A DNA stretch of 64,000 nucleotides, taken from positions 186,001 to 250,000 of the forward strand of contig CM075990.1 in NCBI GenBank assembly GCA_038087875.1, given 5' to 3'. The stretch comes from Malacoraja senta. Its lineage: Eukaryota. This document shows positions 2,905-46,527 of the stretch, one piece after another. Below the pieces are notes generated by a model that was not told where the DNA came from, did not search any database, and saw nothing but the letters and a program-made list of their open reading frames with translations. Positions within the stretch are counted from its first letter, which is position 1. Every line of letters begins with the position of its first letter. A program made the position numbers and the translations under genes.

Positions 2905-4890
2905 AAGAACACAAGAATAGGAGTTGGAGTAGGCTATTTATTCACTAAAGCCGGCCACACCCAGCATTCAATATGATCATAGCTGGTCGATCCTGGCCTT
3001 AACTTCCCTTCAATGCCTGTTCCCCATAACTCTTAATGCCTCTATCTTTTAGATATTTATCTACCTCCACTTCACAAATGTCTAATGATCTGCCTTGCAT
3101 CAACCCCGGGGCAGAAATTTACAAAAATTCATAACTCTCTGAGAAAAGAAATTTTAAATGACTGGCGGCATTCCATGTAGTAATGTCCCTAAGAATGTGA
3201 CTCCCTCAATATGGTATGGGACTTTATTTGTCACATGTAATGAGGTACAGTGAAATTCATTTTTGGCTAAGTACAAGTATCACTATACATAAGCACTTGT
3301 ATACATCCTGGATAAGCATCTCAGATACAGCACAAGTGTACAGCAATAGTACACTGAAACAGTATACAGAGTCGCCAGTTTGGTGCCATTTTCAAGTCCC
3401 AGTTGTTGAAAGTGTAGGGATCTTGATCTGACCACGAAGGCCTGTTGTCCTGCTGGTGTTGCAGGGTCGGCCTGGCCAACCGAAGCCGTGGTGTCCTCCG
3501 CCGCTGCTCCACCGCGTGCAGTCCATGTGCTCGGCCTCTTGGAGCGGAGCCCGGTCCAGCTGAGCCCCAGGCTGCTGCAGGGCCTCCAGCGGCCCACTTC
3601 ACTGTCGAAGCCGTGCACTCCCTCCTGCAGACGGTCAGCTTACTGGCCCACCGTCCGACTCCTTCTTCTCTAGGCGGGAGAGCCAAGCCTTCCAGGTGGG
3701 TTCGGGTCTACGGCGCGGGTCCTTGATCTGAGGCGGACAAATCGGGCCTACCGGGTGGGTCCTCCGTCCACGGCAGGCGAGTCCCCAGTCTGTGACAGGC
3801 AAGCCGGACTTTCCGGGCAGGTTCTCCATCCTCGTTCTGCAGTGGGTAAGCTGGATCTTCTGGCTGGTCCTCGGTGTTCTGTCCGCAGTGGACAGTCTAG
3901 GCCTGCTGGTGGATCAGGCCACAGTAGTGGCAATATCCTAATATCTACCCCGTTAACCCTTCTGAAAATCTTATGTTTAAATTTAGTTACAATCATTCCT
4001 CTGAACTCCATGGAAATCAGAACCCCAGCCGTCCATCCTCTCATGAAAGGACAACCCTCTCACTCCAGGAATTAGCTGGGCAAATCTCCTTTGGACGGCC
4101 TCCAACAATACTATATCCTTTTTATTTCCAAGTAAGGAGTCAAAATCTATGTGCAATATTCTTGGATAGGCCTCACTAACATCCTATACAATTACAACAA
4201 AACTCCCTATTCTTAACGATAGACACAAATGCTGGAGTAACTCGGCAGGACAGAGGTAAGGAAGGGTAAGGTGTGAAAAGGAGACACCAAAATGGCTGGG
4301 AAAATGTGGAATAGATCACTGCTAGCTAGATGGTGACAACTATGCAAACAGAGATGAAATGTAATCGGGGACAGTCAGAATAATCGGAGAACTGGGAAGG
4401 GGGAGGGGATGGAGAGAGAGGTAAAGCAGGGGTTACTTGAAGTTAGAGGTCAACATTTAGGTGTAAGCTGCACAAGCAAAATATAGGGTGCTGTTCCTCC
4501 AATTTGCGCTGGGTCTCACTCTGACAATGGAGGAGGCTCAGGACAAAAGGTCAGTGTGGGAATGGGAGGGGGAGTTAAAGTGGTTAGTAACCGGGAGATC
4601 AGGTAGGTTTGGGCGGACTGGACGGAGGTGTTCAGCGACATGATCGCTGAGCCAGCGCTTGGTCTCGCCGATATACTGGAGTCCACACCTGGAACAGCGG
4701 ATACAGTAGACGAGGTTGATGGAGGTGTAAGTGAACCTCTGCCTCACCTGCAAAGACTATTCTTAAATTCTTATTCTTAAACCCCTTCACAATGAAGGCC
4801 AAAATGCCATTTTTCTTCTTAATCACGTTTGACCTACCTGGCAACTATTTGTGATTTACAGGCCAGAATACCTGGATCCTTCTGAACTTC
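2905..4890 (-). mobile_element. Old CR1 3' region, fragmented by an unclassified repeat (~3220-3890) and a Penelope fragment
   Basis: CATAAGAAC..ATAGGAG tail at 2902. ORF remnants read GVDIRILPL (3748-4044) and KKNGILAFIVKGF (4632-4844). Confidence 0.6.
4221..4755 (-). mobile_element. Penelope-like element 3' fragment encoding a GIY-YIG endonuclease remnant
   Basis: ORF 4538-4753 reads LVYCIRCSRCGLQYIGETKR..EH..HFNSPSH (GIY-YIG with CCHH residues). It is followed by the same terminal sequence as the short hammerhead-bearing repeats. Confidence 0.85.
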
Positions 4891-5150: not shown

Positions 5151-5850
5151 TTAAATGTATTGCCTCAACTACCTCTGACAACTCATTCCACATATACAGA
5201 GCCTCTGCATGAAAGGTTGTCCCTCGGATTCCTATCTGAAGAAGGGTTTCGGCCCGAAACGTTGCCTATTTCCTTCGCTCCATAGATGCTGCCGCACCCG
5301 CTGAGTTTCTCCAGCACTTTTGTCTACCTCTGCATGAAAAGTTGTCCCTCGGATTCCTATTAAATCTTTCCTATCTCACCTTAAAATATGTCCTCTAGTT
5401 CGTAAACCCCCTTCCCAGCGAAAAATACTGCATGCACCCTATCTATCCCGCTCATGATTTCATACGCTTCCATAAGATCACCCCTCAACCTCTTGCCCTC
5501 ATATTATAAAGACCAATTCAGTCCAATCTCCTCTATACCTCAGGGCCTTGAATCCTAGGAACATCCTCATAAATCTTATCTGCACATTTTCTAGCTTGAT
5601 GGCATCTTTTCTATAGCAGGGTGACCAAAACTGAACACAATACTCTAAGTGCGGCCTCACCAACATCTTGTACAATGTAATACCATGTCTCCACTCAATT
5701 TCTTGACTTATGAAGGTTAGGTTGCCAAATGTCTTCTTCATCATCCTATCTATTTGCAATGCCAATTTCAGGCAAGCAAGTACTTCTACTCTGAGATCCC
5801 TCAGCTCTACAAGACTCAAGTCCCTACAGGTCACTGTGAAGGTCCTGCCC
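5150..5850 (-). mobile_element. CR1 3' fragment, host of the 91-bp insert
   Basis: ORF 5499-5834 reads LYKMLVRPHLEYCVQFWSPCYRKD. Confidence 0.85.
5236..5326 (+). ncRNA. Solo Penelope-terminal fragment with a minimal hammerhead-ribozyme-like motif
   Basis: CTGAAGA-A-GGGTTTCGGCCC(stem II)-GAAACGTT. It is flanked by a 34-bp direct duplication at 5202-5235 and 5327-5360 (1 mismatch). Confidence 0.65.
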
Positions 5851-6599
5851 TAATGATGATGAAGATACTTTATTGTCACTTGGATATTCATTGTTTTCAA
5901 GTACACAAAAGAGTCGCCACAAAAGTGCTGAAAAATTAACAAAATGTACTCCTCTTCTCCTCCAACCCACAGACAATCAGGTACTGCACCCACACACACG
6001 GGCAATGACTAAGCCGCCAGGATAAACCAGTGACTGCCAGCATTGCCTCTTCAAGCTCTAAAATTGAGCTGGCAGGATAAGCCTGAGACCACCGGCAACC
6101 CCTCTCGATGCAAGGGTGAACTGTGGGGATAAACCTGAGACAGCCACGCCTCCTCCTTACAGCACGGTGGCGCAGCAGTTGAGTTGCTGCCTTAAGCCCC
6201 TGTCCCACTTACGTGTCCTTGGCACGCTAATTACGCGACCTCATGGTCGCGTTGAGGCGCGACTGTCCCGCGAAGGTCGCAAGCGATTTCATGCGCCCGC
6301 ACAGCCGACTGGCTGCATCTCTGGAGAGAAGGAATGGGTGATGTTTCGTGTCGAGACTCTTCTTCAGTCTGAAAGAAGGGTCTTGACCCGAAACGTCACC
6401 CATTGCTTCTCTCCAGAGATGCTGCCGGTCCCGCTGAGTTACTCCAGCATTTTGTGTCTATCTTCAATTTTCTTGGAACCGCTCTTTTTTTTTTTTTTTT
6501 TCCGTAAATGTTCTTTTTGTTAGATTTTTAAACAAATGTACAATTTACAAGGGAGGGTAGAAAGCTCAAACAATTTAAAAAACACTTAAACAAAATTAT

Positions 6600-9500
6600 C
6601 AAATTAAAATATTAACATTTTTATCTGTAATATATTCAACCTCCTGCGGTGACCAGCATTCACAGAAGGCCTCCACAGTCCCCGTGGACACCGCGTGTTC
6701 CCTCTCTAGGGACACGCGGGCACGGACGCAACCCCGGAAAAGGGGCAGGCAGCCGACCGCTGTGCGGCCATATACTCGTGGAACACGGTCTCTTCCTCAC
6801 CGCAGAAATGACAAGCAGGGGAAGAGTCCATGAACCGGCTCAAGTACCTATTACAGGCCACGGCTTTGTGCAAAACTCTCCACCCCAGGTCCCCGATGTA
6901 AAGGGGGAGGACTCCCTTGTAGAGAGACCTCCACTGGGGACCGCTCCCCTCGTCAGGTGGTAACACGGACCGCCAGGGTGTGTCTGGATGGAAGACGAGG
7001 GCGAGGAAGTGGAGAGTGTGCAAGAGCAGCCTGTACAGTATGCGCCTCTCCGCGCCACAGAATGGAACACTGGGCATCTCAGAAAGGCGGCTCGTGTTGC
7101 ATGGGGCCGGCTCTCGGGGAGGGTCCCGGGCTATGGGCCCTATGAACAATTCCGACTGAGCGGGGGTAAGCTCGTCCGGAATCGTTCCATGTACACGCCT
7201 CTCCTCGAAACCCACCGTCACAGCCCCGACACCCCCCTTCCCCTGAGGAGCAGGGCCCTGGCTGAAGCTGACCAAATTCCTGGCCTTCAGGAGTTCACGG
7301 TAAAAACCAGGCAACTCCCGCCTAGCGCGTCGACTCATGCCCGCTACCGGGAGCCGGGAGCCCTCCTGAAGGCACCGCCCCTGACGGAAAAAGTACGTCG
7401 CCAGCACGTGCCATTTAGGAGGGTAGTCCGAGTAGACGTACCTCTGCAGGGTCCTGAGTCGGAGAGCCGCCACCAGGGTACGAATACAGACCAGCGCCTG
7501 ACCACCCTCCTCCAACGGGAGACTCAGAACCCCAGCAGAGACCCAGTGGTTCCTCTCACCCCAGAAGAAGTTGACCAATCTCCTCTGTAACATGGTTATA
7601 AAATAAGAGGATGGGACCATAGTGGCCATCCGGTACCACAGCAGAGAGGCCACCAGCTGGTTTATAACTACAGCCCTGCCCCGGTAAGAGAGCACACCAA
7701 GTAGGTCGGACCAACGTCCCAGCCGGGCGACCACTTTCGCCTCCAGCTCCTGCCAGTTCGCCGGCCACCCCTCCTCAGCGGGACTCAGGTAGACCCCCAG
7801 ATAGAGGAGGTGCGTGGTACTCCACGCAAAATCTGCCATCTCCTCCGGCAGGGAGCCCACCTGCCACCCACCCACCAAGAGACCAGAACACTTCCCCCAG
7901 TTGATCCTGGCGGAGGATGCAGCCGAGAAAACCTGCTGGCACTCACGCATCCTCCACAAGTCAACGGGGTCGGTGAACATCAGAAGGACATCATCGGCAT
8001 AGGCCGAGAGAACCACCTCCATCCCCGGCCCCGGTAAAGCCAGGCCTGTCAACCTCCTCCGGAGAAGGCACAGGAAAGGCTCGACACAGATGGAATACAG
8101 CTGGCCGGACATGGGACATCCCTGACGAACCCCCCTCCCAAAGGGAATGGGGGCCAACAAAGTGCCGTTGACCTTAACAAGGCATTCTGCAGCAATATAT
8201 AAATGTCGGACCCAGGCCACAAAATGCGGTCCAAATCCGAACGCCTGCAGAGTCCCAAGAAGGTGGTCGTGCTCCACCCTGTCAAACGCCTTCTCCTGGT
8301 CGAGGGAGAGAAAGGCGACCGACTGACCAGCCCCCTGGGACAGATGGATCAGGTCCCAGAGCAGATGGATATTGTCCTGGATGGACCGGCCCGGGACTGT
8401 GTACGACTGGTCAGGGTGGATCACCTGGGACAGCACAGGACCCAGGCGATTCGCCAATGCCCGTGCAAAGACTTTATAGTCCGTGCTGAGGAGAGAGACC
8501 GGGCGCCAGTTCTTGAAAAGGCGAAGATCGCCCTTCTTGGGCAGCAGGACAACAACTGCCCTGCGCCAAGAGAAAGGCATCTCTCCGGTCGCCAGGCTCT
8601 CCCCCAGGACCTTCATATAGTCGCCCCCCAGGACATCCCAGAAGGCTCTAAGGTACTCCACAGTCAGCCCATCCAGCCCTGGAGACTTGCCCCTCCTGAG
8701 CTAGTGCAGGGCAACAGTCAACTCCTCCAGAGTTGGGGGATCATCCAGGTGTTCAGCCATATCATTGCACACAGTGGGTAAGCCCTCCCACAGGACTTCT
8801 TGCGCCTCCCCACTCGATGTGCCAGCCGAGAACAGAGTCCTGTAGAAAGACCGAACTGAGGCACCAATGCTCTCTGGATCTGTGACAGAGGAGCCATCAT
8901 CCGCAAGCAACTCTACAAGCTGCCTGCGGGCTCCTCGCCCCTTCTCCAGAGAAAAGAAAAAGGGGGAGGCGCGGTCCAGGTCGTGCAACATCTGGACCCG
9001 CGACCTCACATATGCACCCCGGGACTTCCTAAGCTGCAAGTCCCTCAGTGCTCCCTTCTTCTCCTGGTATTCCTCCCACTCACACGAAGCCCCACCAGTC
9101 TGATCCAGATGAGCCTCCGAGTCGAGCAACTCTCTCTCAAGCCGTCCGATCTCAGAGTCCCGCGCCTTGGTCGACCCCCTCGCGTAGTCCTGGCAAAACA
9201 GATGGACGTAGGCCTTCCCCACATCCCACCACTGCCTTAGGGAAAGGAAACGCCCCTGCCTCTCTCTCCACCTCACCCAGAACTGCCTGAATGAATCCCG
9301 GAATCGGCGATCCTCCAACAGCTGGCTATTAAAATGCCAGTACGCGGACCCTGCCCGTGTGCGCGCTGGGATAAAGTCCACTCGCACCAGGCAATGGTCC
9401 AAGCATGGCGCCGGCTGCATGGAGGCTGCCGAAACACATGAGACATAGGCCTTGGACACGTATAAATGATCAATACGGGAACCACCACCCTCAAACCTGT

Positions 9501-10071
9501 ACGAGAAGGCGTTAGAGTCAGGATGGAAATTCCGCCAAGCATCTACCAGCTCAAAAGAGTCCACCATCTCCCTCAAAGTCTTTACTGCTCCCGGGTCACG
9601 CTGAACGCCAGAGCAATCTCTTGTCTCGAGGGCACAATTAAAATCTCCCCCAAGGAAAACACACTCCCCACGGTCGATAGTATTCAACAACGTGGTCACT
9701 TCCCTTGTTAAGCGCGTCTGCATTGCGCCGATCTTGGGGGCGTACACATTAACAAAGTGTAATGGCACGCCATCCAAGCGCATGGCCAGATACAGCAAAC
9801 GGCCTGGTACAACGTCCTGCACTTTGAGGATCTCCGGCTTGAAAGACGGGGCCAACAGGAAGGCTACTCCACTCGATTTGGAGCTGAGATGACTCGTGTA
9901 GACCCCCCCTTCCCACTCCAGGAGCCAGGTGGGTTCATCACTAGCCACAGTGTGTGTTTCCTGCAGGAAGCTCACCGCATACCTCCCGTCCCTGAGCACT
10001 GAGAGATGGTGAAACCTACGGAGAGACCCCCTGCCCCCATTGATATTCAGGCTGGCTATAGTGAGCTTCAT
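6600..10071 (-). pseudogene. Tx1 ORF2: APE endonuclease, reverse transcriptase and C-terminal zinc finger
   Basis: SLNING, FLQETH, GGDFN, RID and DH endonuclease motifs; WRPVSLL, LDQEKAFD, QGCPMS and YADD RT motifs; CHFC..H zinc finger. There is an in-frame stop at 8701 and the C-terminus is disrupted. Confidence 0.92.
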
Positions 10072-12048
10072 TTTGAAAGTACACTAGATCTTTTACCCAT
10101 CCACGGTGATGGATTGGAGCCGCCCCTACCCTTCTGCCCTCTCTTTAGGGTCTTAAAAAGCTCTTGGAACTGGCGCCTCTCATTTCTTACTAGCCCCGCC
10201 TCATTCCCCTTCTTCTGAAGGATGGCATGAATGGACTGCATGGGCGCCCTCAGGTCCGACCAGCGGTCGACAGCCAAATCCACCTTGTTCCTACTCCTTC
10301 TAGTGTCCTTTAAGAACTTCCGAAGTTCCCAGACTTCGACAAGTCGAGACACGGGGCCGCGGGGTGGAGCAGTCCGTCAACTCACTGTCAACGGACTCCG
10401 CGTACCCTTCCTCCTCGCACTCAATGTCCGAGCCCGAGTCCAGAAGGTTACTACTCTCAGCCGCCTCGCTCACCCCTCCCTGTGAGGTGGGCATTCCAGC
10501 CATATCACACAGTCCCTCCTCTGTCACCATCCCACCCCCAGGATCAGTGACAGGGGCAGGTACCAGTGCCTCTGACCGCGGCAAGCTATCTGACAATTGG
10601 CCAGTCTCCTGCACGCTCCCATCGCCCTCTGTAACCGGATTGGGAACAGTGAAGTCAGAGCAAGTCTCCGGGCCTTGCTGTAAGCGTGTATGTATGGAGT
10701 CCGACCTAAGGACACGATCCGAAACGATCACCCCACTGTGGCCCTCAGGGGCCGATGTTACTGGAGTCTCCCCTGCTCCCTCAACCGTAGCCTCAACGGG
10801 GAGCTCATGTTGGGGACCCACCCCCTCACCCAAGTCCCCCCCCTTCAGGCTGCCCCTGGTCATCCACTAAGCTAGCAGACGTGTTCTCTGGGGGAACAGC
10901 CCCCAAGAGTAATATATCGCCACTCTCAGGTGGTCCCAGACCTACAGAGGCATCCTCCTCCTCAGAGGAAACGTGCCCTGGGTACCCCACCTCAACAGGA
11001 GGGGAAAACTCCCCTTCAGGTTGCCCCTGAACTTCAGGCCCCTTCTCTGTATCGGAGGACCCATGCCTCCTCCTCTTCGAACCACTGGCGTACGGTGGTA
11101 CGGTGAGCTCCATTGCAGAAGCCTCTACCTCCGCACTACCGTCTATCTCAGAGGCAAGCACAAAATTATCTGCTGCCTGCGGTCCCACTTGGAGGTGATC
11201 ATCTTCTAGGGGACCCGCCTGGAGATGTTTCTTCTTTTTCTTGACTTTCCTCCCCCTCTGATGCTCCCAAACCTTCCCATCCACCCCACGCACTTCTCCG
11301 GCATCCACCGCCACAGGTACGGGACATGGGGATGGTGGGGGGATAGGGGTTGGGGGTAGGGGAGTAAAGCCTTCACGGGCCACCGTGGTAAAACCAGCAG
11401 CCCCAGATGGGCCAGTAATGCTTTCCCGTGCCATCATGGTGGAACTGGCAGCCCAGGTCCTGGGACAATTCTTGCGAAAATGCCCCACCTTTTTGCAAGC
11501 GTGACAACGCACTTGGCCCGCATTCCAGAACATGCGATAGGAGAAATCATCCACCTCCACCTCAAAACTCCCCTCCGTCCATCCCCTGTGCCAACTGCAT
11601 ATACACGCGATGCTTGAACATATATATATGCTGCATCTCAGGATCGTCAAACCTGTGCAACAGTTTGGTGAGCCCTGACCGCACCTCCCCCAGCTTCCTT
11701 ACATGTGGGAGCAGGAGCGCATCCGGAACAAAAGTGGGAACGTTGGACAGAATGACCGGCAAAACCGGACCCCGCCATGGGTCCACCGCCGCTGTTACCC
11801 CCCTTTCCAGAGCTAGAGCCACCGCCTGTTCAGTCTTTAGTAGAACCACAACCTTCCCACTGACCACCGCGTCCGAGACTATGGCTTTCTTGCCAACAGT
11901 CTCACCCAGCGCATCTAGTAAGGCCTTTAAGGGCAGGTTGCTCTGCATGTACATTTTTACACCATATGTGCGCCCCATCAACTCGTGGCCCTCAGTCTCG
12001 GAGACTGCCGACCGTGCGACAGCTGCATAACTCTGAGGGGCCGCCATC
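10068..12048 (-). pseudogene. Tx1 ORF1: gag-like protein with a zinc knuckle
   Basis: MAAPQSYAAVA start, VILSNVPTFVPD, CHACKKVGHFRKNC and a long acidic linker. It is frameshifted across ORFs 11562-12404, 10826-11650, 10300-10863 and 10068-10352. Its stop overlaps the ORF2 ATG. Confidence 0.85.
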
Positions 12049-13529
12049 TTTAGGGCGTGGCACAACACACAAAGTATCAGTACTTTATAATCAAAGCAGT
12101 CTTTCTGCTGTTGCTGCACCTCCACTCTTTTGCAGCAGTTAAATAGTCTTGTGAAGGCTTTCTTGGTAAGCAACAGAAGCAGTCTCCTCCTGATAAGATA
12201 GGAATGTCCGTGCCAATCCTCCCTGTCGTCAAAAATGGAGCTTCCGGAAGCTTCTTCCCCAGGCCTCCGTCGCCTCCCCGGCTTCAACGAAATCCAAGGC
12301 ACTGTTGCCGTTCTTACCCAGCACACGTGGACCGGGCAAGTCGGTGTAGGAGGGAGCTTTCCGATGTTACTGACCACAAACACCGCTCTAGACTCAGCTC
12401 CCACTAGTTCAAGTGTAACTTGGCCTTCCGCCAGCCACTGCCGCTCCTACGACTTTCCAGATACACGGACAAATCCTCCCTAATTAGAGGAATCTTTGAA
12501 CAAAGAAAGTCTCTGCAGATCGACAAAGCTCTGAACTGCAAAGTCTGACTGCTTTTGTTTCTCCCCGCCAAACAATACCTTCCGAAAAGTTCATCAAATC
12601 CTCCCTGCCAGCAGAACAGCTTCTCACCTGGCCCCGCTCTGGGAGTAGAAGTGGGGGCGTATCCAGACCGCAACGGCCGTTAGCCCCAGGCCAGTTTGGC
12701 GATCGTTTGCCTGCTTCTGCTGTTGGAGGTGAGACGTTGCGTCGCGCCAGGGTCTTGGGCCTGTCCAACTTTGGCCGTCAATTACGCGACAGGCCGTTGG
12801 CGCGCAAAGATTTCGTTCGCTACAAAAATTTTGTATGCACCGTGCAATGTCGCGCACAACTACATACCCCTCCGCGCTTCTCAGTGGAACCGGCTCCGCG
12901 CGTGCATACGATGCCCGTGTGCCTCAACGCGACAACGAGGTCGTGTAATTTGCGTGCCAAGGACACGTAAGTGGGACAGGCCCTTTACAGTGCTTGCAGC
13001 GCCAGAGACCCGTGTTCGATCCCGACTATGGGTGCTGTCTGTACGGAGATTGTACGTTCTCCACGTGACCTGCGTGGGTTTTCTCCGAGATTTTCGGTTT
13101 CCTCCCACACTCCAAAGACGTACAGGTTTACAGGTTAATTGGCTTGGTATAAGTGTAAATTGTCCCTTGTGCGTGCAGGATAGTGATAGTGTGCGAGGAT
13201 CGCTGGTCGGCGTGGACTCGGTAGGCCGAAGGGCCAGTTTCCGCGCTGTATCTCTAAAAACTAAAAGACCAGCAAGCCCGAGACCGAGGTCAGACAAGTC
13301 CGAGATCGGCAGATCAACCACACATGTGTCCCGGTGACAAGGGACAGCGCCCCCATTCAGTTCTGGATTTTCTTGTCACTGTAAATAAAACATATCACTC
13401 GAGATCACCCTTCTGTGAGTGTCGACATGGTCACTGCCAAACCCAGTGTCATGCCCGACTTTGCAATGTCACAGCTTGGATGATGAGGATGGTGTCAAGG
13501 ATTGCTCAGCTGTGAGATCTGGATTCTTG

Positions 13530-14716: not shown

Positions 14717-17700
14717 AGAGTTTGTGAACTCATCCTTTAAATACAGTGCAGGACTGTTTTGCAACATGCAGTATTGTTAAACATTTTAAACAGTAAATAC
14801 GGAGTTGTGTCGCAGTTGTTTGCGAGCTGGACATGATAGGCCACAGATCCTTCTATGCAGGGGTCTGTAGTTTAAAACAGCTGCTGGACAAATCGTCGAT
14901 AGCTTTTCAGGCTATCTCTATGTTGTGTCTACGTGGCAAGATACCGTCCTTGGGATTGTATACGATTTTTTTTTGTCGAGTTCCTCAAACTGAACAGCCA
15001 TTGTGCAGTTAAGTTTTAGGTGAATTGTTACACCACAACAGACAAGAAATCGGGGTTTTTGAACCGACTTAAAAAAAAAAGAGAATGACTTGATGGCAGC
15101 GTTCACGGGCAATAAACCTTGGCACTTTTGACAAGAGTAGAGAGCCGTTCAGCTCCTATATGGAGAGAGCAAATATATTTTTCACGGCAAACAACATAAT
15201 GGAGATTAGTGCTGAAGGAGAGTGACTGAAACAAATAAGGCTGTTTGCAAATGCATGAAAGCGATTCTGCTCACAGAGATCGGTTCTGAAGTTTACGGCA
15301 CACTCGTGAATCTCCTTGCGCACATAAAGGCAAAAGACGTGCCATTCAATGACGTTATGAAGAAGTTGGAGGAGCACTTCAACCCAAAGCCTCTGGAAAT
15401 TGCAGAAACCTATAAATTTGGCACTAGAAACCGGAAGCAGAATGAGACAATCAATGAGTACATTGTTGCTTTGAAAAACGTAAGTTTGTGCAACTTTGGA
15501 ACCTTTGGAACCTTTCTCGGACACGCACTACGCGACACATTTGTTTGTGGTCTAGTGGATGAACGAATTAAGTTCAAACGCATGAACACTCCAGATCTCA
15601 CATTCGAGAAAGCATGCAAGATTGCTAGCACAATGGAGATGGCATCAAAGAATGCTCGCGAGATTCGTCCACCAAGGACTGCAGTGGCCGTTTACAGTCA
15701 CAAGGCAGTGCCTATGGCCAAACCAAGAGGCGCTAAATCAAAACCAAAGTATGGCGGGGAGCCGAGTTCAGCCAGTTGTTATCGTTGCAATGGTAATCAC
15801 TCATCCAATTTTGTCAGTTCAAAATGGCCAAGTGCTATAACTGCCAGAAGAAAGGCCATATCGCTTCAGCATGTCGGGCCAAGCTTAAAGCAGGAAACCA
15901 ACAATCTGCGGGAAACAAGCAACAACACCAGAGAGGAGTTCAGAACTTGGAGATGAACTCAGATGGAAATGAACTTGGGTTGTACATGATTTATGCAACC
16001 AACATCGATAAGCCTACAACCAGCCAAGGCAAGGACTTTCAAACTAAACTATTGATAAATGAACAGTTAATCGATATATGTATTGACACGGCAGCAGATT
16101 GTTCGGTCATGAGCAAAGACCTGTGCGAAGCAAAGTTCCTACAGGTACCATTGTTTGAGAGTAAGGTCAAGCTGAGAACCTACTCGGGCGAAGTGTTGGA
16201 GACATGCAGACAAATGAACTGTAAAGTTCAGCATAATGGTCAGTCGGTAACACTGCCCATCATAGTGGCCAGCTACAGAAATAAACCAACCCTCCTTGGA
16301 AAGGATTGGCTGAGTAAAATAGAGTTCGACTGGAAGAACATTTTCAGCGTCAATTTGTCCAAATCACGTCTTGAAAACATCATAAGCAAACATGCAAACA
16401 TTTTTGCTAACAGTTACAAGGGAATAACAGGGTACTCTGCACACATTCGACTTATGCAAGATGTGAGACCTGTGTATTGTCGACCAAGACCTGTACCATA
16501 TGCACTAAAGCACAAGTGGAGGAAGAATTCGACAGGTTAGAGCGGAATGGAGTACTCGTGAAGGCAGAGCAGAGTAACTGGGCAACGCCAATTGTGGCCG
16601 TACCCAAGGCCGACAAAACTGTTCGACTATGTGGTGACTACAAAGTCACAATCAACCAAGCCGTTGATGATGAACAATATCCGTTACCAACCTCGCAAGA
16701 TCTAGCAAGAGTCTTCACTAAACTGGATTTGCCCAACTCAATGTCGACAAGGAAAGTCAGCAGTACTTGACTATCAACATACATAAGGGCTTGTATTCAG
16801 ATACAAAGCTGCCCTATGGTGTGAAATCCTCAGTCTGTCATGGACCAAATATTACAAGGCATTCCGCACTGTGTGTGTAACTAGGATGACCTACTGATAT
16901 TCACAGAGGGCATGGTAGAACATCTGGAAATCCTTGAGCAAGTTCTCACACGACTGAACTGCCACAATGTCAAACTGCGACAAAGTAAATGTGCATTTGC
17001 GCAGAGGTGGTCTACCTTGGACTCAAAGTAGATGCCAATGGACTTTGCCCTTGGGTCATTCCTTGGGATGGTGCAGTTCTATGCATGATTCCTTCCAGAT
17101 TTAGCAACTGTGCTAAAGCAACTACATCATCTACAAAATGATGTGAAATGGACGTGGGGAAAGGAACAGCAACGTGCATATGACATCTGCAAGGAAAACT
17201 TGACAAGTGACAAACTCCTTGTTCACTACGATACAACACGCAAGATGAAACTTGCTTGTGATGCTTCAAGTTATGGTGTAGGTGCAGTGATCTCCCACGT
17301 AATGAATGACAGACAGGAAAAGCCTATTGCTTTTGCATCCCGCACCCTATCACTGAATGTGCGTAATTATGCACAGATAGAAAAGGAACCACTCAGCATT
17401 GTGTTCGGAATCAAGAAATTCCATCAGTTTCTTCTCGGCAGACCATTCACCCTAGTGACTGATCACAAGCCACTACTAGTGATACTTGGTCCCAAGTCAG
17501 CTATATCTTCCGTGGTGGCATCAAGGATGCAGCGCTAGGCAATTTTGTTATCCCAGTATGACTACAAGATTACAGAAGCTCCAAGTGCAACGCAGTTGCA
17601 GATATGTTGTCCCGGTTGCCCCACGAGAACTCTGACGTGGGAAGGGGGAACTCAATCTACACACTGCAAGTTGTAGATGAAGACTTTCCAGTGACTGCAA

Positions 17701-18525
17701 CAGAAATTACAGCAGAAACAGAGAAAGACACTGTGCTGAAGTGGGTCTATGAACAGACATTGAACGGTTGGACTGAAATCGATAGTGGATTGAACTCAGT
17801 TCTGAACTCAGAGCTGAAGCCTTTCTAATATCGACGCCATGAATTACCATGTGAGCAGGGATGCATTAAGTGGGGTTACAGAGTGGTTGTACCAGAGTCT
17901 TTGAGAAACAAAACTATGAATGAACTCCATTCCGAACATCCTGGCATAGTAAGCATGAAGTCAATTGCCAGAAGTTTTGTGTATTGGCTTGGTATTGACA
18001 GTGACATTGAGTCACTGGTGAGCAAATGTTGTGGCTGCCAAAATTACTGGAGTAAACCACCAAAAACACCAGTACAACCCTGGTCATGGCCAAGTAGACC
18101 TTTTCAGAGAGTTCATGTAGATTTTTGTGAAAAGGATAATGATCACTTTCTGGTACTAGTAGATAGTCATTCCAAATGGATTGAGGTTAAGCATATGGGG
18201 TCAAGCACTACTACTGAGTGTACCATAGATGAGTTGAGATCCATTTTTGCATCCCATGGTTTACCGGAAAAACTTGTTTCTGATAATGGGCCTCAGTTTC
18301 GTTCAGAACGGTTCAAAGAGTTCATGCAGCGGAATAGTGTAAAACACAAACTTGTTCCCCCAGACCCATCCAGCCTCCAACGGGTGCAGCAGAAAGGTCT
18401 GTTAGAGTTGTCAAAGATGCTCTCAAGAAACAAGTTTTACAGAGTAGTTCAAAGCTCAGCATGAAACATCATTTGACTAGTTTCTTGCTGAAGTACAGAA
18501 CCACACAACACACAACAACAGGTTA

Positions 18526-19220
18526 AGGGCCTGTCCCACTTACGTGTCCTTGGCACGCAAATTACGCGACCTCGTGGTCACGTTGAAGTGCACGGGCATC
18601 ATATGGCCGCGCGGGGCCGGTCCCACTGAGAAGCGCGGAGGGGTATGGAGTTGTGCGCGACATCGCGCGGGACTCCGAAATTTTTGTAGCGAACGAAATC
18701 TTCGCGCGCCAACGGCCTGTCGTGTAACCGACGGCTAAAGTGGGACAGGCCCAGGACCCTGGCGCGACGCAACGTCTCACCTCCAACAGCAGCAGAAGCA
18801 GTCAAATGATCGCCGAACTCGGCCTGGGGCTCACGGCAGTTGTGGTCCGGATCCGCCCCCACTTTTCCTCCCAGAGCGGGGCCAAGACAATTGAAGATGG
18901 ACACAAAATGCTGGAGTAACTCAGTGGGACCGACAGCATCTCTGGAGAGAAGCAATGGGTGACGTTTCGGGTCAAGACCCTTCTTTTCAGACTGAAGAAG
19001 AGTCTCGACATGAAATGTCACCAATTCCTTCTCTCCAGAGATACTGCCGGTCCCGCTGAGTTACTCCTGCATTTTGTCCATCTTCAAATGACGTTACGCG
19101 CTCCAGATGGCTGTGCATACGCATGAAATCGCATGCGACCTTCGCAGGACCATCGCGGCTCAACGCGACCACGAGGTCGCGTAATTTGCGTGCCAAGGAC
19201 ACGTAAGTGGGACAGGCCCT
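18526..19220 (+). mobile_element. PIF/Harbinger-type MITE family A, copy 2 (695 bp, no Tx1), inserted in the Gypsy integrase
   Basis: ~60-bp TIRs AGGGCCTGTCCCACTTACGTGTCC.., flanked by TTA (18523-18525) and TAA (19221-19223). Removal restores integrase TTTG-x-SPAELL. Confidence 0.88.
18890..19088. ncRNA. Palindromic head-to-head pair of Penelope-derived hammerhead-like motifs inside the MITE
   Basis: ~95-bp inverted arms are centred on CAGACTG (~18991). Each arm reads CTGAA(N)GA-A-stem II-GAAAYGTC. The equivalent, partly deleted palindrome lies at 6313-6468. Confidence 0.6.
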
Positions 19221-20504
19221 TAATTCACCTGCAGAACTGTTGATGAAGAGAAGGCTAAGAATATGCCTAAGTCCAGTTCAAACCAATTTGGCTTTGAGAT
19301 TTGAGCAAAAACAGTTAATTCAAAAACGTCATTTTGACTCCCACAAAAAGGAAAGCTACTTAAAGCCAGATGAGCAGGTTCATGTTCTCAGTCCTCCCAA
19401 CAAGTTCAGTCAAGACAAATGAGATGTTAGGAAAATAGTGGAAGTGTGTGGAACAAAAAGATACTTAGTTGAAGTTGGAGATAGGATCAAAAGTGTTCAT
19501 GTTGATCAAATGATTCCAGCCAAAGATGAACCAAAAACTGAGCATGAAGTCCTAATCCCCGAGTATTTATCTGAAAGTGAGTTGGAAGAGACCACCGTGA
19601 TTGTAACACAAAGCTCAGTTAGTACAGACAAAGAAACAGATTCCTCTGGTCAAAGTCAGGGTACGAATACAGAGCCAAACAAGCCTGCAGTTGAGTCAAC
19701 ACTTAAACCTGTTACACCAGTTACTGTTGGACGATCAGGCAGGATCCGTAAACCAGCAGTCAGGTTAGGTTTGTAAGTTAAATAAATCACTGCACAAGTA
19801 AAACAAAAATGTGTAGATATGTAAAATAAATAAATTATGCTATCATTTAAAATTTCATGAAAACCGGTTTAAATCGAGTATCACCACAACAACATTGTAA
19901 CTGAGTACTTAGATTTAATACTTTAAAAAAGGAGAGCAGTGTAATGTATTCATACATATTCATGTATATGTTAATGAGTTGGTGTTCAATATAAGCAGGG
20001 AATGTTGGGTAATAAATCTCTCTCTCGTGATCCAGGCAACCAGCGTGTAAGTTGTTATTCATTCTGCCGTCGGGAATATAACAACCATCGCCAGCTGATA
20101 ATCCTCTTGTTGCTGATTACTACCCTCCTCTTGCGGTAATCACACTCACTCACTGATAATCACCCACCCGGGGGATAGTCCTCCCTGTTATTACCAACTT
20201 CTCCTGCTGCAATAACCCTAAACTGCAGATAAATGCCCCCACTCCTCTTGATAATCACTGCCCCCCTGAAGACAAATCACCCTCACTCTGTGATACTCAC
20301 ACACCCGTGATCATCACACCCGCTAGATGATAATCACCTCTGTGATATTCAGGTCTATGACGAACATCACCATTCCATACCCCCAGAGATGCTGAGTGTC
20401 CCACTGAGTTACTCTAGCATTTTGTGTATCTCTTCTGTGATATTTATGTTTACCCTGTTTTAATAACCTGCTGATAATTACCTTCACCTTGTGATGATTA
20501 CATT

Positions 20505-22269: not shown

Positions 22270-24180
22270 GCATTCTTAAAACCTGCAAATCAACAAATCC
22301 AAACGATGGTATAATGGATGTTGTTACCCTGTTACAGAGTGCAACAATAAATTACTCCTTTTTGGGACTTTCATCAACATTTGTGTTGTTAATTCTAATA
22401 TCAACAGATATCATGGCTGTATAGGCCAATCTGGTAATACCAATACCCTTGAAGCAGCATCTTGCCTGATTTTAAGCAAACATTGGCTTATGAGGCAGAA
22501 AGGTGGAAATATATATGAAAACATACCACCCAAATGTAGCGAGAAAGCATCAATCGCCACTGCTCCTGGATCTGGTTTCCATGAGACATATCTCGATAGC
22601 TGATGATTCAAGTCGATGTCGGTCATTCCAAATCTGGTTACTATATCATTGAATACCTCTTGATTCAACATCCATTCTTTATTATCATGGAACTTTCGTG
22701 ACCTGGTGTCTGCTATCATATTCATTCTACCTGGTAGATGGATAGCTGAAATCCAAATATTCTTTTCAATACACCAAGACCAAATTTGATTAGCCATTTT
22801 GTCACATGACACCGACTTGATTCCACCCATATGATTAATATAGGCAACTGCTGATGTGTTATCAATTTGAACTTGAACATGCTTATTAGTTGTGTTAGAA
22901 CAGTAAGCTTGGAGCCCATAGAAACATCCTAGAAGCTCCAAATAGTTAATTCCCCATGTCTGCAGTAACAATGACTCTTCCTGATTCCATCTGCCTCCGC
23001 AGCTAGATGTTAAGTCAGTTGCACCCCATCCTAGTGCACTGGCATCAGTTTGTAATATCATGGAAGGTTGTTCAATCAGCACTTTGCTGGAACTGCTTGA
23101 GACATGTAGAATCCACCACTGCAGATCAGAAACTGCATTTGTTGTTAGTTGCATGGTTCTATCAAAATGACCAACATGCTTTCTCAGTGCCTGTTCTTTA
23201 ATTCTCTGCAGCTGTTGATAATGTAATGGTCCAAATTGAACTGCTGGGAATGCTGCTACTAATTTTCCCAGTATACGAGCCACCTGTCTAATTGAGGGTT
23301 TTTGCTCGTTTAGGAGATTACTACAATCTTTAATCAAATCCACCCTTTTTTCCCTGGGCAAAGTAATATTCATTTGGACTGAATCAATTGTAAACCCAAA
23401 TAATTAATAGAGGTACATGGTGTTAACCTAGATTTCTTTGGATGAATTAGAAACCCCAAATTTTCAAAAGTTGATTTCACAACTGCAACAGATGCTTCTG
23501 TTGACTGTTTTGTCTTTCCTATAATCAAGACATCATCCAAATATGCCATGAATACATGCCCCTGGCTTCTCAGCAAACCCAGAATTGGTTTTAACAATTT
23601 TGTGAATATTCTGGGTGCAGATGTTAACCCATTAGGCAGAGCTTTGAACTGCCACAACTGGTTCATCCATTTAAATTTAAGATACTTCCTATCTTCTGAA
23701 TGAACAGACACTGAATAATATGCCTTTCAAGTCTATAGTTGCCATATAACATGCTTCTGAAATAAACTGTTTGGCAGTCACAAATGTTTCCATTTTAAAA
23801 TGTCTAAATTGCACAAGAGGATTCAGATTTGTCAAATCTAGAATAATCCTACATCCTCCATCCTTTTTTGATTGAGGGAATATATTTCACACAAATTGGT
23901 GACTTTGGTAGACTGATTTTTTTCAATAACCCCTTTTTTATATAGGGTTTCAAGTGCAACCTGAACCTCCATCACTTCTTTTTGTACAAAGTGCAGAGTT
24001 CGGCTAGGAAGATGCTGAACAGGCAAATAATAATTTGGATTGAATTCAATTCGAAATCCTTGTATACGATTCAGGATTACCACATTCTGAAGTAATTTTC
24101 TTCCAATTATTATAAAAGAAATGTAACCTGCCTCCAACTTTTGGACTTAATCCAGTTAGTATGTTCCCATGAGAACCAGG
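22270..24180 (-). pseudogene. DIRS RT, RNase H and N6-adenine methyltransferase-like domain
   Basis: LPNGLTSAPRIFTK and YLDD (RT); TDAS..GWG, INYLEL, DN and HLPG..N..AD (RNase H); DAF..YIFPPF..PDWP.QPW (methyltransferase). Confidence 0.9.
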
Positions 24181-25859
24181 TCCATCTACCTCTTGAGTCA
24201 TTTGAGTACCCTGAGATTCCTGGGTTCTCCCGGAAGCACGCCCACTGGTTCTTGCTCCCGCTGCTGGCTGCCAACTACGTCCCTGCGTTGATGAGCGACT
24301 TGGTCCAGGATCCGTATGACGTCTGAAAGGATACTTCCTCTTTACAGACTTCACAACCATTGATGTCTTCATCAATCCTGTTTTTGCTTCATCTTCCAAC
24401 TCTTTAATACGTCTCCCGAGATCCTCTCCAAAGAGTAAGTTGGGTAATTGTATAGTACTTGGTTTGCTGCGAATTTTGGATTCATAGTAGGCCGTATCAC
24501 ACTTTTCCTCAGACAATTGTCCCGAAGTGGGTGCTGCATGGCAACCCCGGTGTTTCCTGATGCAACTCCGTCATCTCTTGGCTTTTTTCTGCTATTCTGG
24601 CAAAAGCAGTTATTCCAGAACCCAGCAGCTTTAATATTCTCTGCAACTGATTCCACATAATTTGATTCACTGCTGCTGCTTTCAGCAACCCACAGTTACT
24701 TCTTGCAGTCTCATCCATTTCCTGCTGTTCCAGCTAATGGAAAACCAAGTAATTTATTAAGGAGGCCAGTTCTTCTCCTAATGGCTCTCCTGACCCTGAT
24801 GGGGCAGCGAATCCTACTGCCAGGAGTGGAACATCTGGCAGCTGCCATTCATCGCCTTGTACAGCCTCACCGTCAGAGTCGGGGTCTGAAATCTCATGAC
24901 CCGTAGCACGCTCCTCATTCCTGAGGGTGCATTCCATCAGCCCTGAGCCAGGTGCTGTTAAGCTGCTCCTGCAGCTTGGATTACAGTACACTCCTTCCTG
25001 AGTGAACTTTGCTCCAACAGCCTATGAAAAAGGCTTTCTATTTGGGCAACATGCTCGAAAGCAGTATCTAGCCCTGTACCAGGAGCTGTTTGAGCTGTTT
25101 CCAGCAGCTTGCTTTCAGTACACTCCTCCCTGAGTGAACTTTGCTCCAACAGCCTATGTAAAAGGCTTTCTATTTGGGCAATATGCTCGAAAGCAGTATC
25201 TAGCTCTGGAGCTACTTACATTGCCTGGGACTCCCTCCTGGGCCGTTGGGATTTAAACTTTGTCTTTTGCCCGACATGCGCTGACAGTGTTTTCACCAGC
25301 CCCAGGTCCACAGTCGCTATGCTCACCGCTGGCGACTGTACCGGGGTTTAGAGGCGGTTGGTCTCTAACCGCGGACTCCCGACTTTCCCGACTTCTGTCG
25401 GCTGTGTCGCTCGCCTCTTCCCCCTGTCCGTTTTTTCCATGGCGTCTGTGGAAAAAATCCCCATTGACCCACAGTAAACGGACCTGGAAAACCTGAAAAA
25501 AGTTTTTACTTACCTTGTAGTTGAAAAACTACAAATCCACTCGAGGAGCTCTGCTCCTCACGTCCGTTTGCGTCAAGGCGTCTGACATAATGACGTGCAG
25601 GCGCACTGGCGGGGTTCTTCACGTAGTCACTTACGTGACTCCGAAGTAAAATTACCCTGCTGCTGTGATAATCACCCTGCTGCTGAGAGTCACTCTTTCT
25701 ATCTGTGATAATTTTACATCTGTTGATAATTTTCCAACCTTTGGTATAATCTCCTTCTCTGTTATGATCACACTCACCCTGTGATAGTCCACACAACCCC
25801 CAGTATTAATCATCTTCACCATGAGATAATCACCTTACCCCATGATAAACATCATTATA

Positions 25860-26165
25860 GGGCAGCACTATGGCACAGCGGTAGAGTTGCTGCCTTAGAG
25901 CACTTACAGCGCCAGAGACCCGGGTTCGATCATGACTACTGATGCTGTCTGTACGGAGTTTGTACGTTCTCCCCGTGACCGCAAGAGTTTTCTCTGAGAT
26001 CTCCGATTTCCTCCCACAGTCCAAAGACGTACAGGTTTGCAAGAAAATTGGCTTGGTATGAATGTAAAATTGTCCCTAGTGTGTGTGGGATAGTGTTAAT
26101 GTGCGGGGATAACTGGTCGGTGCAGACTAGTTGGGCCGAAAGGCCTGTTTCCACACGACTATGCT
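25860..26165 (+). mobile_element. HE1-type V-SINE, near full length
   Basis: GGGCAGCAC..GGCACAGCGGTAGAG (A-box-like), GGTTCGATC (B-box) and the SINE core. Confidence 0.9.
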
Positions 26166-26923
26166 GCCCATTCACTGGCACATGGGTTCTGGAAATTCTT
26201 GTTTCTCAATGAAATGGAACTGAACCTTCTCAGACTTTTCTGAAACATTATGCACCTGATGCACAAAACTATGAATGATTGTGTGAAAGATAACTATAAA
26301 CTAATATTGTAAACTAGATCCTTTAGAGTTCATGTGTCATTTTACATCAGTTCCTCACTATGGGACGGTGGCACAATTGTAGAGTTGCTGCCCTACAGCG
26401 CCTGGGTTCGATCCTGACTACAGATGGTGTCTGTACGGAGTTTCTACATTCTCCCCGTGACCCGAGTGGGGTTTCTCCAGGAGCTTTGATTTCCTACCAC
26501 ACTCGAAAACCATACAGACTTGTACGTTAATTGGCCTGTCCTGGTAAATTGTCCCTAGTGTGCGTAGGATAGAGTTAGTGTGCGAGGATTGCCGGTTAGG
26601 CCCGGGAGCCGTTGGAGCTGTTGCAGTGGGAGGAGTAAAGTCCGGGCGGTGAGTACAAAACCCCATCGTGGGCCTTCGTTCCACAGAGGCCCGGGAGCCG
26701 TTGGAGCTGTTGGTGTGGGAGGAGGAACCCAAATCGGTAACGTTCCATTCGCAGTTTACAGTCCAAAACAAGTGGGCTTGAGGAAGCCGCTGATTGGTGC
26801 AAGCGGACTAGAGGAAGCAGCTGATTGGGAGTCAGATCCCTGCTGATTTCTTCCAGCAGATTGTATTGTATTTGTATTGTATTGTACTTGTATTGTATTG
26901 TATTGTATCCAGGGTACAGGAGT

Positions 26924-27859
26924 ATGAGGGCCAGGGCAGTTTACTGTTCTGGATGTCAGATGTGGGAGGTCAAGGAATCTGATAGCCTTCCAGACGTCCA
27001 CATCTGCGCCAGGTGTATCGAGATGGGGCTCCTAAGGGACCGTATTAGGAACCTGGAGCAGCAGCTCGATGACCTCCATCTGGTCAGGGAGAGCGAGGAA
27101 GTCATAGAGAGGAGTTATAGAGAGGTGGTCACTCCAAGACCACAGGAGGCAGGCAAGTGGGTCACGGTTAGGAGGGGCAAGGGGCAGAGGCAGGGACTAG
27201 AGAGTACCCCAGTGGCTGTACACCTTGACAATAAGTACTCCTGTTTGAGTACTGTTGGGGGGGACAGCCTATCTGGGGCTAGCGACAGCGGCCAGGCCTC
27301 TGGTACAGAGACCGGCCCTGTTGTTCAGAAGGGTAAGGAAAATAAGAGGAGGGCAGTAGTAATAGGGGACTCTATAGTTAGGGGGTCAGATAGGCGATTC
27401 TGTGGACGCAGTCAGGAGACCCGGATGGTAGTTTGCCTCCCTGGTGCCAGGGTCCGGGATGTGTCTGAACGTGTCCAGGATATCCTGAAATGGGAGGGAG
27501 AGGAGCCTGAGGTCATGGTACATATAGGTACCAATGACATAGGTGGAAAAAGGGAAGAGGTCCTGAAAGGAGAATTTAGGGAGTTAGGAGGAGAGTTAAG
27601 GAGAAGGACCACAAAGGTAACAATCTCGGGATTACTGCCTGTGCCACGCGACAGTGAGAGTAGGAATGGAGCGAGGTGGAGGATAAATGCGTGGCTGAAG
27701 GACTGGTGCAGAGGGCAGGGAGTCAAGTTTTTGGATCATTGGGACCTCTTTTGGGGAAGGTGTGACCTGTACAAAAAGGACGGGTTGCACTTGAACCCGA
27801 GGGGGACCAATATCCTGGAGGGGAGATTTGCAAAGGCTACTGCGGAGACTTTAAACTAG
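26924..27859 (+). CDS. CR1 ORF1p: zinc finger, coiled coil and SGNH/GDSL esterase; reading frame intact
   Basis: CSGC..CARC, followed by heptads, then VIGDSIVRG, PGA, HIGTND and DGLHL esterase blocks. The likely start is ATG 26924, after the (TTGTA)n microsatellite. Confidence 0.88.
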   Translation: MRARAVYCSGCQMWEVKESDSLPDVHICARCIEMGLLRDRIRNLEQQLDDLHLVRESEEVIERSYREVVTPRPQEAGKWVTVRRGKGQRQGLESTPVAVHLDNKYSCLSTVGGDSLSGASDSGQASGTETGPVVQKGKENKRRAVVIGDSIVRGSDRRFCGRSQETRMVVCLPGARVRDVSERVQDILKWEGEEPEVMVHIGTNDIGGKREEVLKGEFRELGGELRRRTTKVTISGLLPVPRDSESRNGARWRINAWLKDWCRGQGVKFLDHWDLFWGRCDLYKKDGLHLNPRGTNILEGRFAKATAETLN

Positions 27860-28185
27860 AACAGATGGGGGGAGGGACTCAAATAGAGAAAGCTGGTATA
27901 CAGTGTGTGAGGCAGGAGGCAGAGAAGGGAAGCACTCAGACCCAACAGGTAGGGGGGAAAGAAGAAAAAATAATAAACAGAGAATAAGAGGTGGTGGGTT
28001 TCTTAAATGTATGAGCAGAGAGACAGAGGGGCGTAAAATGAGGGTAGAAGCAATAGGTAACAAGGTGAAAAGTAAACGTGGCAGGCAGACAAATCCAGGG
28101 CAAAAATCAAAAGGGGCCACTTTTCAACATAATTGTATAAGGGGTAAGAGCATTGTAAAAACAAGCCTGAAAGCTTTGTGTCTCA

Positions 28186-30509: not shown

Positions 30510-30515
30510 GTCTCA

Positions 30516-43809: not shown

Positions 43810-44240
43810 CTCCCCAGAGGCCCAGCATAAATTGGAGGAACAGCACCTCATATTTTGCTTGGTTAGTTCACGCCTCTGTGGTATGAATATTGACTTCTCT
43901 AACTTCAAGTAACCCTTCCTTTCCCTCCATCCCTCCCCCTTCCCAGTTCTCCGACCAGTCTGACTGTGCCCAATTACATTTTATCTGTTTGCTTCTCCTT
44001 GCTAACAATGATCTATTCTAAATCTTCCTAGATCTCCACCTCCTTTGATGTCTCATTTTCACATCTTACCCTTCCATATTTCTAGTTCCCCTCTTCCCAA
44101 TTCTCAGTCTGAAGAGTGGTCTCAACCCAAAACGTCACCTATTCCTTCTCTCCAGAGATGCTGCCTGTCCCGCTGAGTAACTCCAGCATTTTGTGTCTAT
44201 CTTCAGTTTAAACCAGCATCTGCAGTTCCTTCCTACACTC
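43810..44240 (+). mobile_element. Penelope-like 3' fragment with a degenerate hammerhead-like motif at ~44109-44137
   Basis: LEEQHLIF-type endonuclease tail, matching 4221-4540 in reverse. CTGAAGAG..AAAACGTC has lost the G of the GAAA box. Confidence 0.75.
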
Positions 44241-45205: not shown

Positions 45206-45597
45206 GCAGACCTGTGATAATCATGAAATGACATTAAACTTACAGCTTTCTGACTTCCGGTGGCACCATGTTGGACTGAACAGGTGTAGCATTTAGCTCC
45301 GTGCCCGTAATCGGCGAATTTTCGCTTTAAAAATCGATTTGGAAGTCGGGTCCGTGTGTAATAACTTACCGGAGCTGCTTGTCGCGGTGCTGATGATGTC
45401 ATCAGAAATTGCCGCGAAAATAACGGAGGTTTAAGCTATTTTTAAATGAAAAGAACGACTCCTGTCAGAGCCCCCAGAGATCTGTCTCCAAGCAACTTTT
45501 GAAAATACAGTCACTACCTGAAAAAATTCAAGAACCTGAAGAAGTAACTGCTGAACTTCAAGAACTCGAAGAAGTATCTGCTGAATTAGCTCTGAAA

Positions 45598-46527
45598 ATG
45601 ACTACAAGATCAAAGGCTGAAATGGCTGAAAAAGTTTCAAAGGACAAAGAAATGGAGGAAATTAAGATATCGGTGAGTGACTTAAAAAATGAACTTTTGG
45701 CAGCTAATAAAAGTATGATGGAGAGCATGGAGAGCATGATGCAGAACATGAACGTCGGGAATCAGAAAGTTATTGATTCAATCGGTAATATAAATAAACG
45801 AATAGACGATGTTCATGGTGAATTATCTTTGAAAATTGATAAGGTTGAAACAGACTGTACTAGTAAGTTTGAGGTGGTCCACCAAACTGTTAAAACATGT
45901 TGTACTACCATGAAAGATATGGAAATAGCAATGTTACAAATGGCTGAAGAAATGCAGAAAATTAAGAAGAATTATGAAGAGGTCGTGGGTCAGCTGACCA
46001 AAACGTTGGATAAATGCCTTGACTTGGAAGCAAGGTCAAGACGGCAGAATTTAAGAATAGTTGGAGTGGCAGAAGGGGAAGAGGGGAATGATCCCCAAGA
46101 GTACACTGCTAACTTACTTAAAAATATACTCGATCTGCCAGCTAAACCGAAAATTGAAGTGGCACGCCGGGCGAATCGGCCAAAATTAAGGGCACAAATA
46201 AGAGCTGCTCCCCCATGACAGATCATTGTGAAATTTCGGGACATTTCAGCTTTGGAAGAGGCCATAAAAAAAGTACAACATGGAAAGATTATGAAGTTTG
46301 GGATGAACACTATCAGACTTTTTAGAGACTATCCTTATGAAATTGCCAAAAAACGAGAAACGTTTAAAAATACACAACAGATCTTGAAAGGGCACAGGGA
46401 AATCAGATATGGAATAATTTATCCTGCTAAGATGATCATCACTTATAAGGATACCGAACGCAAATTTGCTGATCCAGAAGCTGCTTACAAATATGCTCAA
46501 GGCATTGTAAAAGAAATAGAGGCTTAA
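45598..46527 (+). pseudogene. L1 ORF1p (coiled coil, RRM, CTD) with a single in-frame stop
   Basis: DLEARSRRQNLRIVGVAEGEE, PP*QIIVKF (TGA at 46216-46218, probably CGA>TGA), RLFRDYP and IYPAKM. Confidence 0.9.

Follow-up and report, generated by a model that had tools for sequence, protein, structure and literature searches.

A stretch of 64,000 nucleotides from Malacoraja senta (assembly GCA_038087875.1, contig CM075990.1, positions 186,001 to 250,000; hereafter the window, with coordinates counted from its first letter) holds a long interspersed nuclear element (LINE) of the Tx1 type inside a miniature inverted-repeat transposable element (MITE). Our analysis suggests that this Tx1 family probably prefers its site in the MITE, which belongs to an abundant and likely Harbinger-type family; one filled site was seen. 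Three elements are nested at the locus. A short interspersed nuclear element (SINE; about 6160-13266) encloses a MITE with terminal inverted repeats (TIRs; 6195-12984), and the MITE encloses the Tx1 LINE on the minus strand (6485-12628). This order had been proposed in the original prediction and is borne out by alignment of the MITE arms to a second MITE copy and by the SINE matches.

The nest and its empty counterpart

The LINE occupies 6,144 bp between the MITE arms, and MITE copy 1 together with the LINE forms a composite of 6,790 bp with TTA/TTA on the outside. The left arm (6195-6484, plus strand, with its 62-bp TIR at 6195-6256) agrees with MITE copy 2 at 265 of 290 positions (91.4%), and the right arm (12629-12984, plus strand, TIR at 12923-12984) at 320 of 355 (90.1%). 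Apart from a 56-bp deletion in the left arm relative to copy 2, the arms align end to end. The SINE is interrupted at a TTA, and the remaining SINE copies cross the same point with one TTA. We infer that the MITE entered the SINE first, with a 3-bp TTA duplication, and that the LINE followed.

MITE copy 2 (18526-19220, unstranded) is empty, an uninterrupted 695 bp, and contains the target motif a single time, at 18874-18884, as predicted. The LINE is flanked by a target-site duplication (TSD) with its 3' copy at 6474-6484 and its 5' copy at 12629-12639, both on the minus strand; the 5' copy is identical to the empty site of MITE copy 2. A 12-bp duplication had been described; a duplication is indeed present, but it measures 11 bp, or 12 bp when one base of the tail is included, and two adjacent mismatches separate its copies. 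A match of at least 10 in 12 positions would arise by chance with a probability of 8e-5, or about 0.002 across 25 registers. The target lies at the midpoint of MITE copy 2 (348 and 347 bp to the ends), a few bases off the base of a hairpin at 18888-19090. It is 82% GC and offers at most one T able to pair with the poly(A) tail. No tRNA genes were found in a search, and the target is thus no recognisable RNA gene.

Class of the host MITE

The TIR of the MITE begins with AGG, and the outer duplication TTA/TTA of copy 1 is perfect and of the 3-bp TWA type. At MITE copy 2 (18523-19223) and at a second MITE family (60779-61114) the flanks read TTA on the left and TAA on the right, differing at the middle base. 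The host reading frames at MITE copy 2 and at the 60782-61111 insertion are compatible only with a gain of 3 bp, and these host-frame tests excluded readings of the flanks as TTAA (piggyBac/Kolobok) or TA (mariner). A TWA duplication is given as the PIF/Harbinger signature (PMC4482050, PMC3014272), and the TIR is described as starting with A or G (PMC4482050). The MITE is therefore likely Harbinger-type on its sequence features; the TTA/TTA flanks, the read-through of the SINE copies and the frame tests all agree with the class and the 3-bp TWA duplication proposed at the outset.

The likeness to the PIF/Harbinger MITEs described in PMC4482050 extends to the TWA duplication, the first base A of the TIR and the absence of coding capacity, whereas the TIR of about 62 bp compares with less than 60 bp in most of them. 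The window MITE also differs in its internal TIR-like repeats and its captured palindrome. The two TIRs of copy 1 disagree at 6 of 62 bases, including two mismatches at terminal positions 3-4 which lie in the left TIR, and those of copy 2 at 2 of 62. Both TIRs of copy 1 can be recognised, then, but "intact", as they had been called, is too strong a word.

Some further features of these elements were observed. The non-identical 3-bp flanks at two of the three Harbinger-type insertions may stem from repair of the middle base on insertion, or from two substitutions. The first 228 bp of MITE copy 2 (18526-18753) close with a second TIR-like motif (18739), another one being found at 18614, and captured DNA may have extended an originally small MITE to the present 695 bp. 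The second TIR MITE family is represented by 330 bp at 60782-61111, has a related TIR start, and lies within the reverse transcriptase (RT) reading frame of a LINE.

Abundance of the two families in other organisms

Contigs from sequencing runs of four other organisms, one run each, were placed on 6370-12910 in 30 bins. The depth sums obtained are not copy numbers, and only their ratios are used. All 30 bins were covered in all four runs, which indicates that the Tx1 and MITE families exist in relatives, and both are multicopy in these runs. A broader sampling found 24-45% of the sampled words in 20 of the 24 runs among those listed (five organisms and one further group). The empty-site joint 6473>12629 was present in 14, 19, 17 and 11 contigs of the four runs, so that the target is both conserved and abundant. 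It is also in large excess, because the depth of the MITE at 12716 exceeds that of the Tx1 3' end at 6519 by factors of 32, 21, 51 and 71. From these ratios, no more than some 1.5-5% of the MITEs would be expected to be filled.

Within Tx1, depth at the 3' end (6808-7026) was 12, 82, 34 and 28-fold higher than at 12064-12282 towards the 5' end. Most Tx1 copies would accordingly be 5'-truncated products of retrotransposition and not whole composites. This bears on the idea that a single ancestral insertion was multiplied by a Harbinger transposase as the 6.8-kb composite, in which case shared flanks would be no sign of targeting. Such hitch-hiking could draw on the two recognisable TIRs and the perfect outer TTA/TTA, and composite Tx1 elements are known from Xenopus, to judge by the title of Garrett et al. 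1989. We nevertheless regard it as very improbable, given a 3' depth 12-82 times the 5' depth in all four runs and a left TIR in MITE copy 1 with two terminal mismatches.

In one run (organism B), contigs over 10103-12568 stand at 6-14 times single-copy depth with about 97% identity and point to young, near-identical Tx1 copies. Several searches elsewhere gave nothing that bears on the locus. The exact motif of the Tx1 3' untranslated region (UTR) had 0 matches in metagenome contigs, and a 16-mer with the target motif had 12 matches in viral contigs, none of them MITE-like, which we judged to be chance. Among related loci (80 from metagenomes, 1 from a genome, 0 viral) the best segments reached at most 46% identity, with no blastn match to the MITE or to the ends of Tx1. 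Ten candidate peptides from spurious open reading frames (ORFs) spanning the target site returned 0 matches, and tblastn of 311 retrieved proteins against the MITEs and the SINE gave 16 short matches at chance level.

The palindrome beside the target

The hairpin next to the site is a palindrome of about 200 bp (18888-19090 in MITE copy 2) whose DNA fold was computed at -81 kcal/mol, a value with no shuffle control. In copy 1, the remnant of this captured palindromic repeat spans 6307-6470 (unstranded; inverted self-match 6307-6430; many copies in the window) and carries degenerate cores like those of a minimal hammerhead. By eye the palindrome resembles the minimal Penelope-type hammerhead, and a minimal hammerhead form is described in PMC4209133. 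The original prediction placed a hammerhead palindrome beside the site; the palindrome is real and adjacent, but the Rfam search yielded no hammerhead match (nothing at gathering score, four sub-threshold hairpin matches), and all four strand readings of the core in both MITE copies depart from the cleaner free copies of the window. With cores that are altered, locked in a hairpin and without an Rfam match, there is no support for a ribozyme function of the palindrome here.

The palindrome suggests another explanation, in which the LINE would prefer a structure or a short motif and not the MITE itself, either the palindrome base, which might extrude as a cruciform or be prone to breaks, or a short GC motif that also occurs elsewhere. 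Only a few bases separate the end of the duplication from the foot of the near-perfect hairpin, and the putative nick is about 15 bp away from it. The hairpin repeat is also vastly commoner than the MITE, the bin 6370-6588 summing to a depth of 8-25 million against 0.1-0.5 million for the MITE. However, the nick falls in MITE sequence outside the hairpin, and the target motif is absent from the consensus built from loose ends of free hairpin copies. We hold this explanation to be improbable.

Copies of the repeat with the hammerhead-like core were noted at 2681-2738, 5236-5334, 20363-20435, 44101-44209, 55132-55241 and 58924-59029, and a simple core pattern fits three of them (5236, 55232 and 59017). 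By read depth this repeat is the most abundant part of 6370-12910 in the four runs.

Affiliation of the LINE and its endonuclease loop

The ORF2 protein of the window, read through its lesions with X (P0001), served as the query of the homology search and of the trees. Its top match among 353 was the Xenopus Tx1 ORF2 (YTX2_XENLA, P0002), with 46% identity over 100% of the query and 1125 bits, and the next-best match at a query cover of at least 80% scored 775 bits at 41%. Sturgeon (56% over 69%) and turtle gene models came after Xenopus. The nearest named relatives are exonised pieces from Hemitrygon (79% in the RT) and Heterodontus (63% in the endonuclease, EN), in line with a cartilaginous fish as host, and contigs in ENA and Logan carry closer relatives at 67-74%. 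For ORF1, an atlas search matched only eukaryotic clusters without a name. In a separate observation, a Tx1-type LINE (39%) was met at 3386-4780 of a 5.7-kb contig (L093) assigned to a metagenome-assembled genome of Metamycoplasmataceae, most likely contamination from an animal host.

The endonuclease phylogeny proposed earlier was run. FastTree placed P0001 and Xenopus Tx1L in one clade, apart from other Tx1-type matches, with a support of 0.991 for the EN (5 of 48 sequences) and 1.0 for the RT (4 of 47), and in larger EN sets the clade received 0.999 (15 of 90) and 0.997 (30 of 254). Its members are Xenopus Tx1L, sturgeon, turtle and elasmobranch sequences, and P0001. The trees were midpoint-rooted, sequences with too little domain cover were excluded, and the reference set was without named Keno, Dewa, Kibi, Tx2L and Tx1-9_AMi. 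Both the top match and the trees support membership of the window LINE in the Tx1L lineage, as proposed in the first description.

The EN of this lineage varies in a beta-hairpin loop that is linked to target choice and that bears RDGH at its tip in Tx1L (PMC1950540). The loop length was readable in 27 of the 30 clade sequences from the set of 254. The Xenopus, sturgeon and turtle members have 11 residues in this loop, and P0001 has 7 Gly-rich ones. The short Gly-rich form recurs in Heterodontus P0045 and in P0122 and P0124, while P0130 and P0173 have 8 residues and P0252 has 6. Judged by the aligned proteins, the lineage is the same as that of Tx1L and the recognition surface a different one.

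Evidence for and against target preference

Three considerations favour preference for the MITE site. Chance placement is unlikely because the MITE family, outside the composite, makes up only 695 of about 57,200 bases (1.2%), or 1.8% when both TIR MITE families are counted. A GC-rich site with at most one T is unlike the TTTT/AA rule followed by the promiscuous L1 (PMC1950540). The closest characterised relative, Tx1L, itself targets a DNA transposon.

Other observations weigh against it. Only one filled site has been seen; neither a second one nor a clearly unrelated flank appeared in the window and the listed contigs of the four runs. Since the EN loop is 4 residues shorter than that of Tx1L, the specificity of Tx1L is not transferable to the window LINE. 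Eight of the 32 listed contig pieces continue on the 5' side for at least 60 nt past the end of the match, and for none of them is a further piece on the MITE arm listed. This last sign is weak, because these pieces are only 83-86% alike and share stops (two end at 9409, one at 9400), which looks like a sister subfamily. Among the rows listed, the joint and loose-end listings being dominated by the hairpin repeat and a further 498 joints and 4,252 loose ends lying outside them, no joint was found at 6484-6501, at 12628 or from the Tx1 interior to the MITE arm, and this counts neither way. As an observation of its own, three diverged contigs lose the match at 9400-9409, the end of the EN domain, a hint that a sister subfamily of Tx1 carries another EN.

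The most serious competitor is chance nesting, namely that a Tx1 family of weak or no specificity hit one of many MITEs in a repeat-saturated genome. The window is rich in nests, with MITEs within a SINE, an LTR (long terminal repeat) retrotransposon remnant and an RT ORF; the EN loop is unlike that of Tx1L, a second filled site did not come to light, and the case was chosen for being nested. Against this stand the small share of TIR MITEs in the window (about 1-2%), a site that is GC-rich and not T-rich, and a nearest characterised relative that aims at a DNA transposon (PMC1950540, PMC6719617). Taken together, we think chance nesting unlikely, though it deserves to be kept in mind. Preference for the MITE site began with a prior that leaned against it, and a likelihood ratio of 10-20, by our own estimate, would raise it to a high probability at the least. 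We lowered our confidence to a plain "probable" because the loop has changed, there is one copy, and nested cases were singled out for study.

Established LINE biology suggests the following steps for the insertion. The endonuclease would have nicked the strand beside the GC-rich motif, and reverse transcription would have been primed there on the poly(A) RNA. Another nick at a distance of about 11 nt would then have given rise to the duplication. The far more abundant MITE may serve the Tx1 family as a safe place to land, and the short Gly-rich EN loop of the family may read a sequence other than that read by the Xenopus EN. A wider scenario is speculative and in our opinion doubtful. It holds that the Tx1L lineage has lived on non-autonomous DNA transposons since the split of sharks and bony fishes, that the elasmobranch EN loop was rewired to fit an 11-bp, GC-rich target within a Harbinger MITE, that the MITE is safe to enter and may also lend a promoter upstream, and that Harbinger transposase can move filled MITEs whole.

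The LINE copy and neighbouring elements

The LINE shows the features of the Tx1 clade, namely an ORF1 with a CCHC knuckle, an ORF2 with APE endonuclease and RT, a poly(A) tail and a TSD. On the minus strand, the 17-nt poly(A) tail lies at 6485-6501 and ORF2 at 6600-10071, with APE endonuclease (PF03372, E 6e-13), RT (PF00078, E 3e-39) and the remnant of a C-terminal Cys/His motif. ORF1 lies at 10068-12047 on the same strand and was read as a three-frame translation with frameshifts and a stop; its zinc knuckle (PF00098, E 0.0013) falls slightly short of the curated cut-off. The 5' UTR (12048-12628, minus strand) fills the space between the 5' TSD and the ATG of ORF1 and is covered by contigs in all four runs. 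The element had been called full-length, which is true of its extent from end to end but not of its coding capacity. A TAG interrupts ORF2 at codon 457, its 3' part changes frame, and it shows two gaps against the Xenopus ORF2, near 7237-7152 and at about 6760. With stop, frameshifts and gaps, this copy is dead. Several lesions look private to it, because contigs of other copies have a different base at position 8703, which makes up 90-100% of the depth in each of the four runs, and carry indels at 10361, 10836 and 11576 in ORF1. No second copy of this Tx1 was found within the 64-kb window by blastn and tblastn.

The SINE, which we take to be of the HE1/tRNA-head type, is represented on the plus strand by a 5' part (6160-6194), ending in the left TTA duplication at 6192-6194 and matched by blastn to copies at 25863-25897 and 56172-56203, and by the remainder (12985-13266), which includes the right TTA duplication and is 83-88% identical to five further copies of the SINE elsewhere in the window. 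A decayed Gypsy-type LTR retrotransposon (15216-19600), with gag, pol and integrase fragments, houses MITE copy 2. From the appearance of their ORFs, we presume that 22411-24570 is a decayed DIRS-like RT/RNase H element, 26825-33123 a decayed CR1-like element broken by a Rex/L2-type LINE, and 45424-51369 a near-complete but decayed L1.

Comparison with known Tx1 systems and implications

The TSD of Tx1L is about 23 bp long, against 11 bp in the window, and Tx2L/Tx2D forms a second pair of a LINE and a non-autonomous DNA transposon in Xenopus. The window LINE resembles Tx1L in its ORF2 (46% over the full length), its place in the same EN and RT clade, and its position inside a non-autonomous TIR element. 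Xenopus laevis Tx1L is reported to insert in Tx1D, a non-autonomous DNA transposon (PMC4494074, PMC6719617, PMC1950540), and its EN was shown biochemically to be sequence-specific (PMC1950540), whereas the window LINE is known from sequence alone. The two ENs are 42% identical, and that of the window has 7 loop residues instead of 11 and no RDGH tip (PMC1950540). The target described for Tx1L has an AGTT motif (PMC1950540), to which the window target sequence is unlike. Tx1D is called piggyBac-type (PMC4494074), while the MITE of the window has a 3-bp TWA duplication.

Crocodilian Tx1-9_AMi is reported to sit at about 300 bp from the ends of Harbinger transposons (Kojima 2015, PMC4494074). The window Tx1 likewise sits in a Harbinger-type host, about 350 bp from its end; the class of host animal differs, however, the preference of Tx1-9_AMi is based on many copies, and the two are likened here by published description and not by sequence (PMC4494074). 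In the same study, a family is regarded as target-specific when more than 20% of its flanks share one target (PMC4494074). Tx1-Mar and SINEU in Mariner-N4_AMi also land in a non-autonomous DNA transposon that is abundant, as is suggested for the window, but they belong to a Keno-related group and have a Mariner host with two preferred sites (PMC4494074). A Tx1 element aimed at a Harbinger-type element is thus of a published kind, a precedent that the original prediction did not mention and that lowers the novelty of the present case and raises its prior. No report of a Tx1 target in cartilaginous fishes was found in literature listings and the openings of abstracts, a coverage that leaves out Repbase and Dfam.

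The surprise is modest, because the habit, including the Harbinger host, has been published. If the preference holds, transposon-targeting Tx1 LINEs would be extended to cartilaginous fishes, and a natural pair of related endonucleases, with loops of 11 and 7 residues, would have different targets. Such a pair could probe how APE endonucleases shift their specificity, a point which loop-grafting on L1, as described in PMC1950540, left open.

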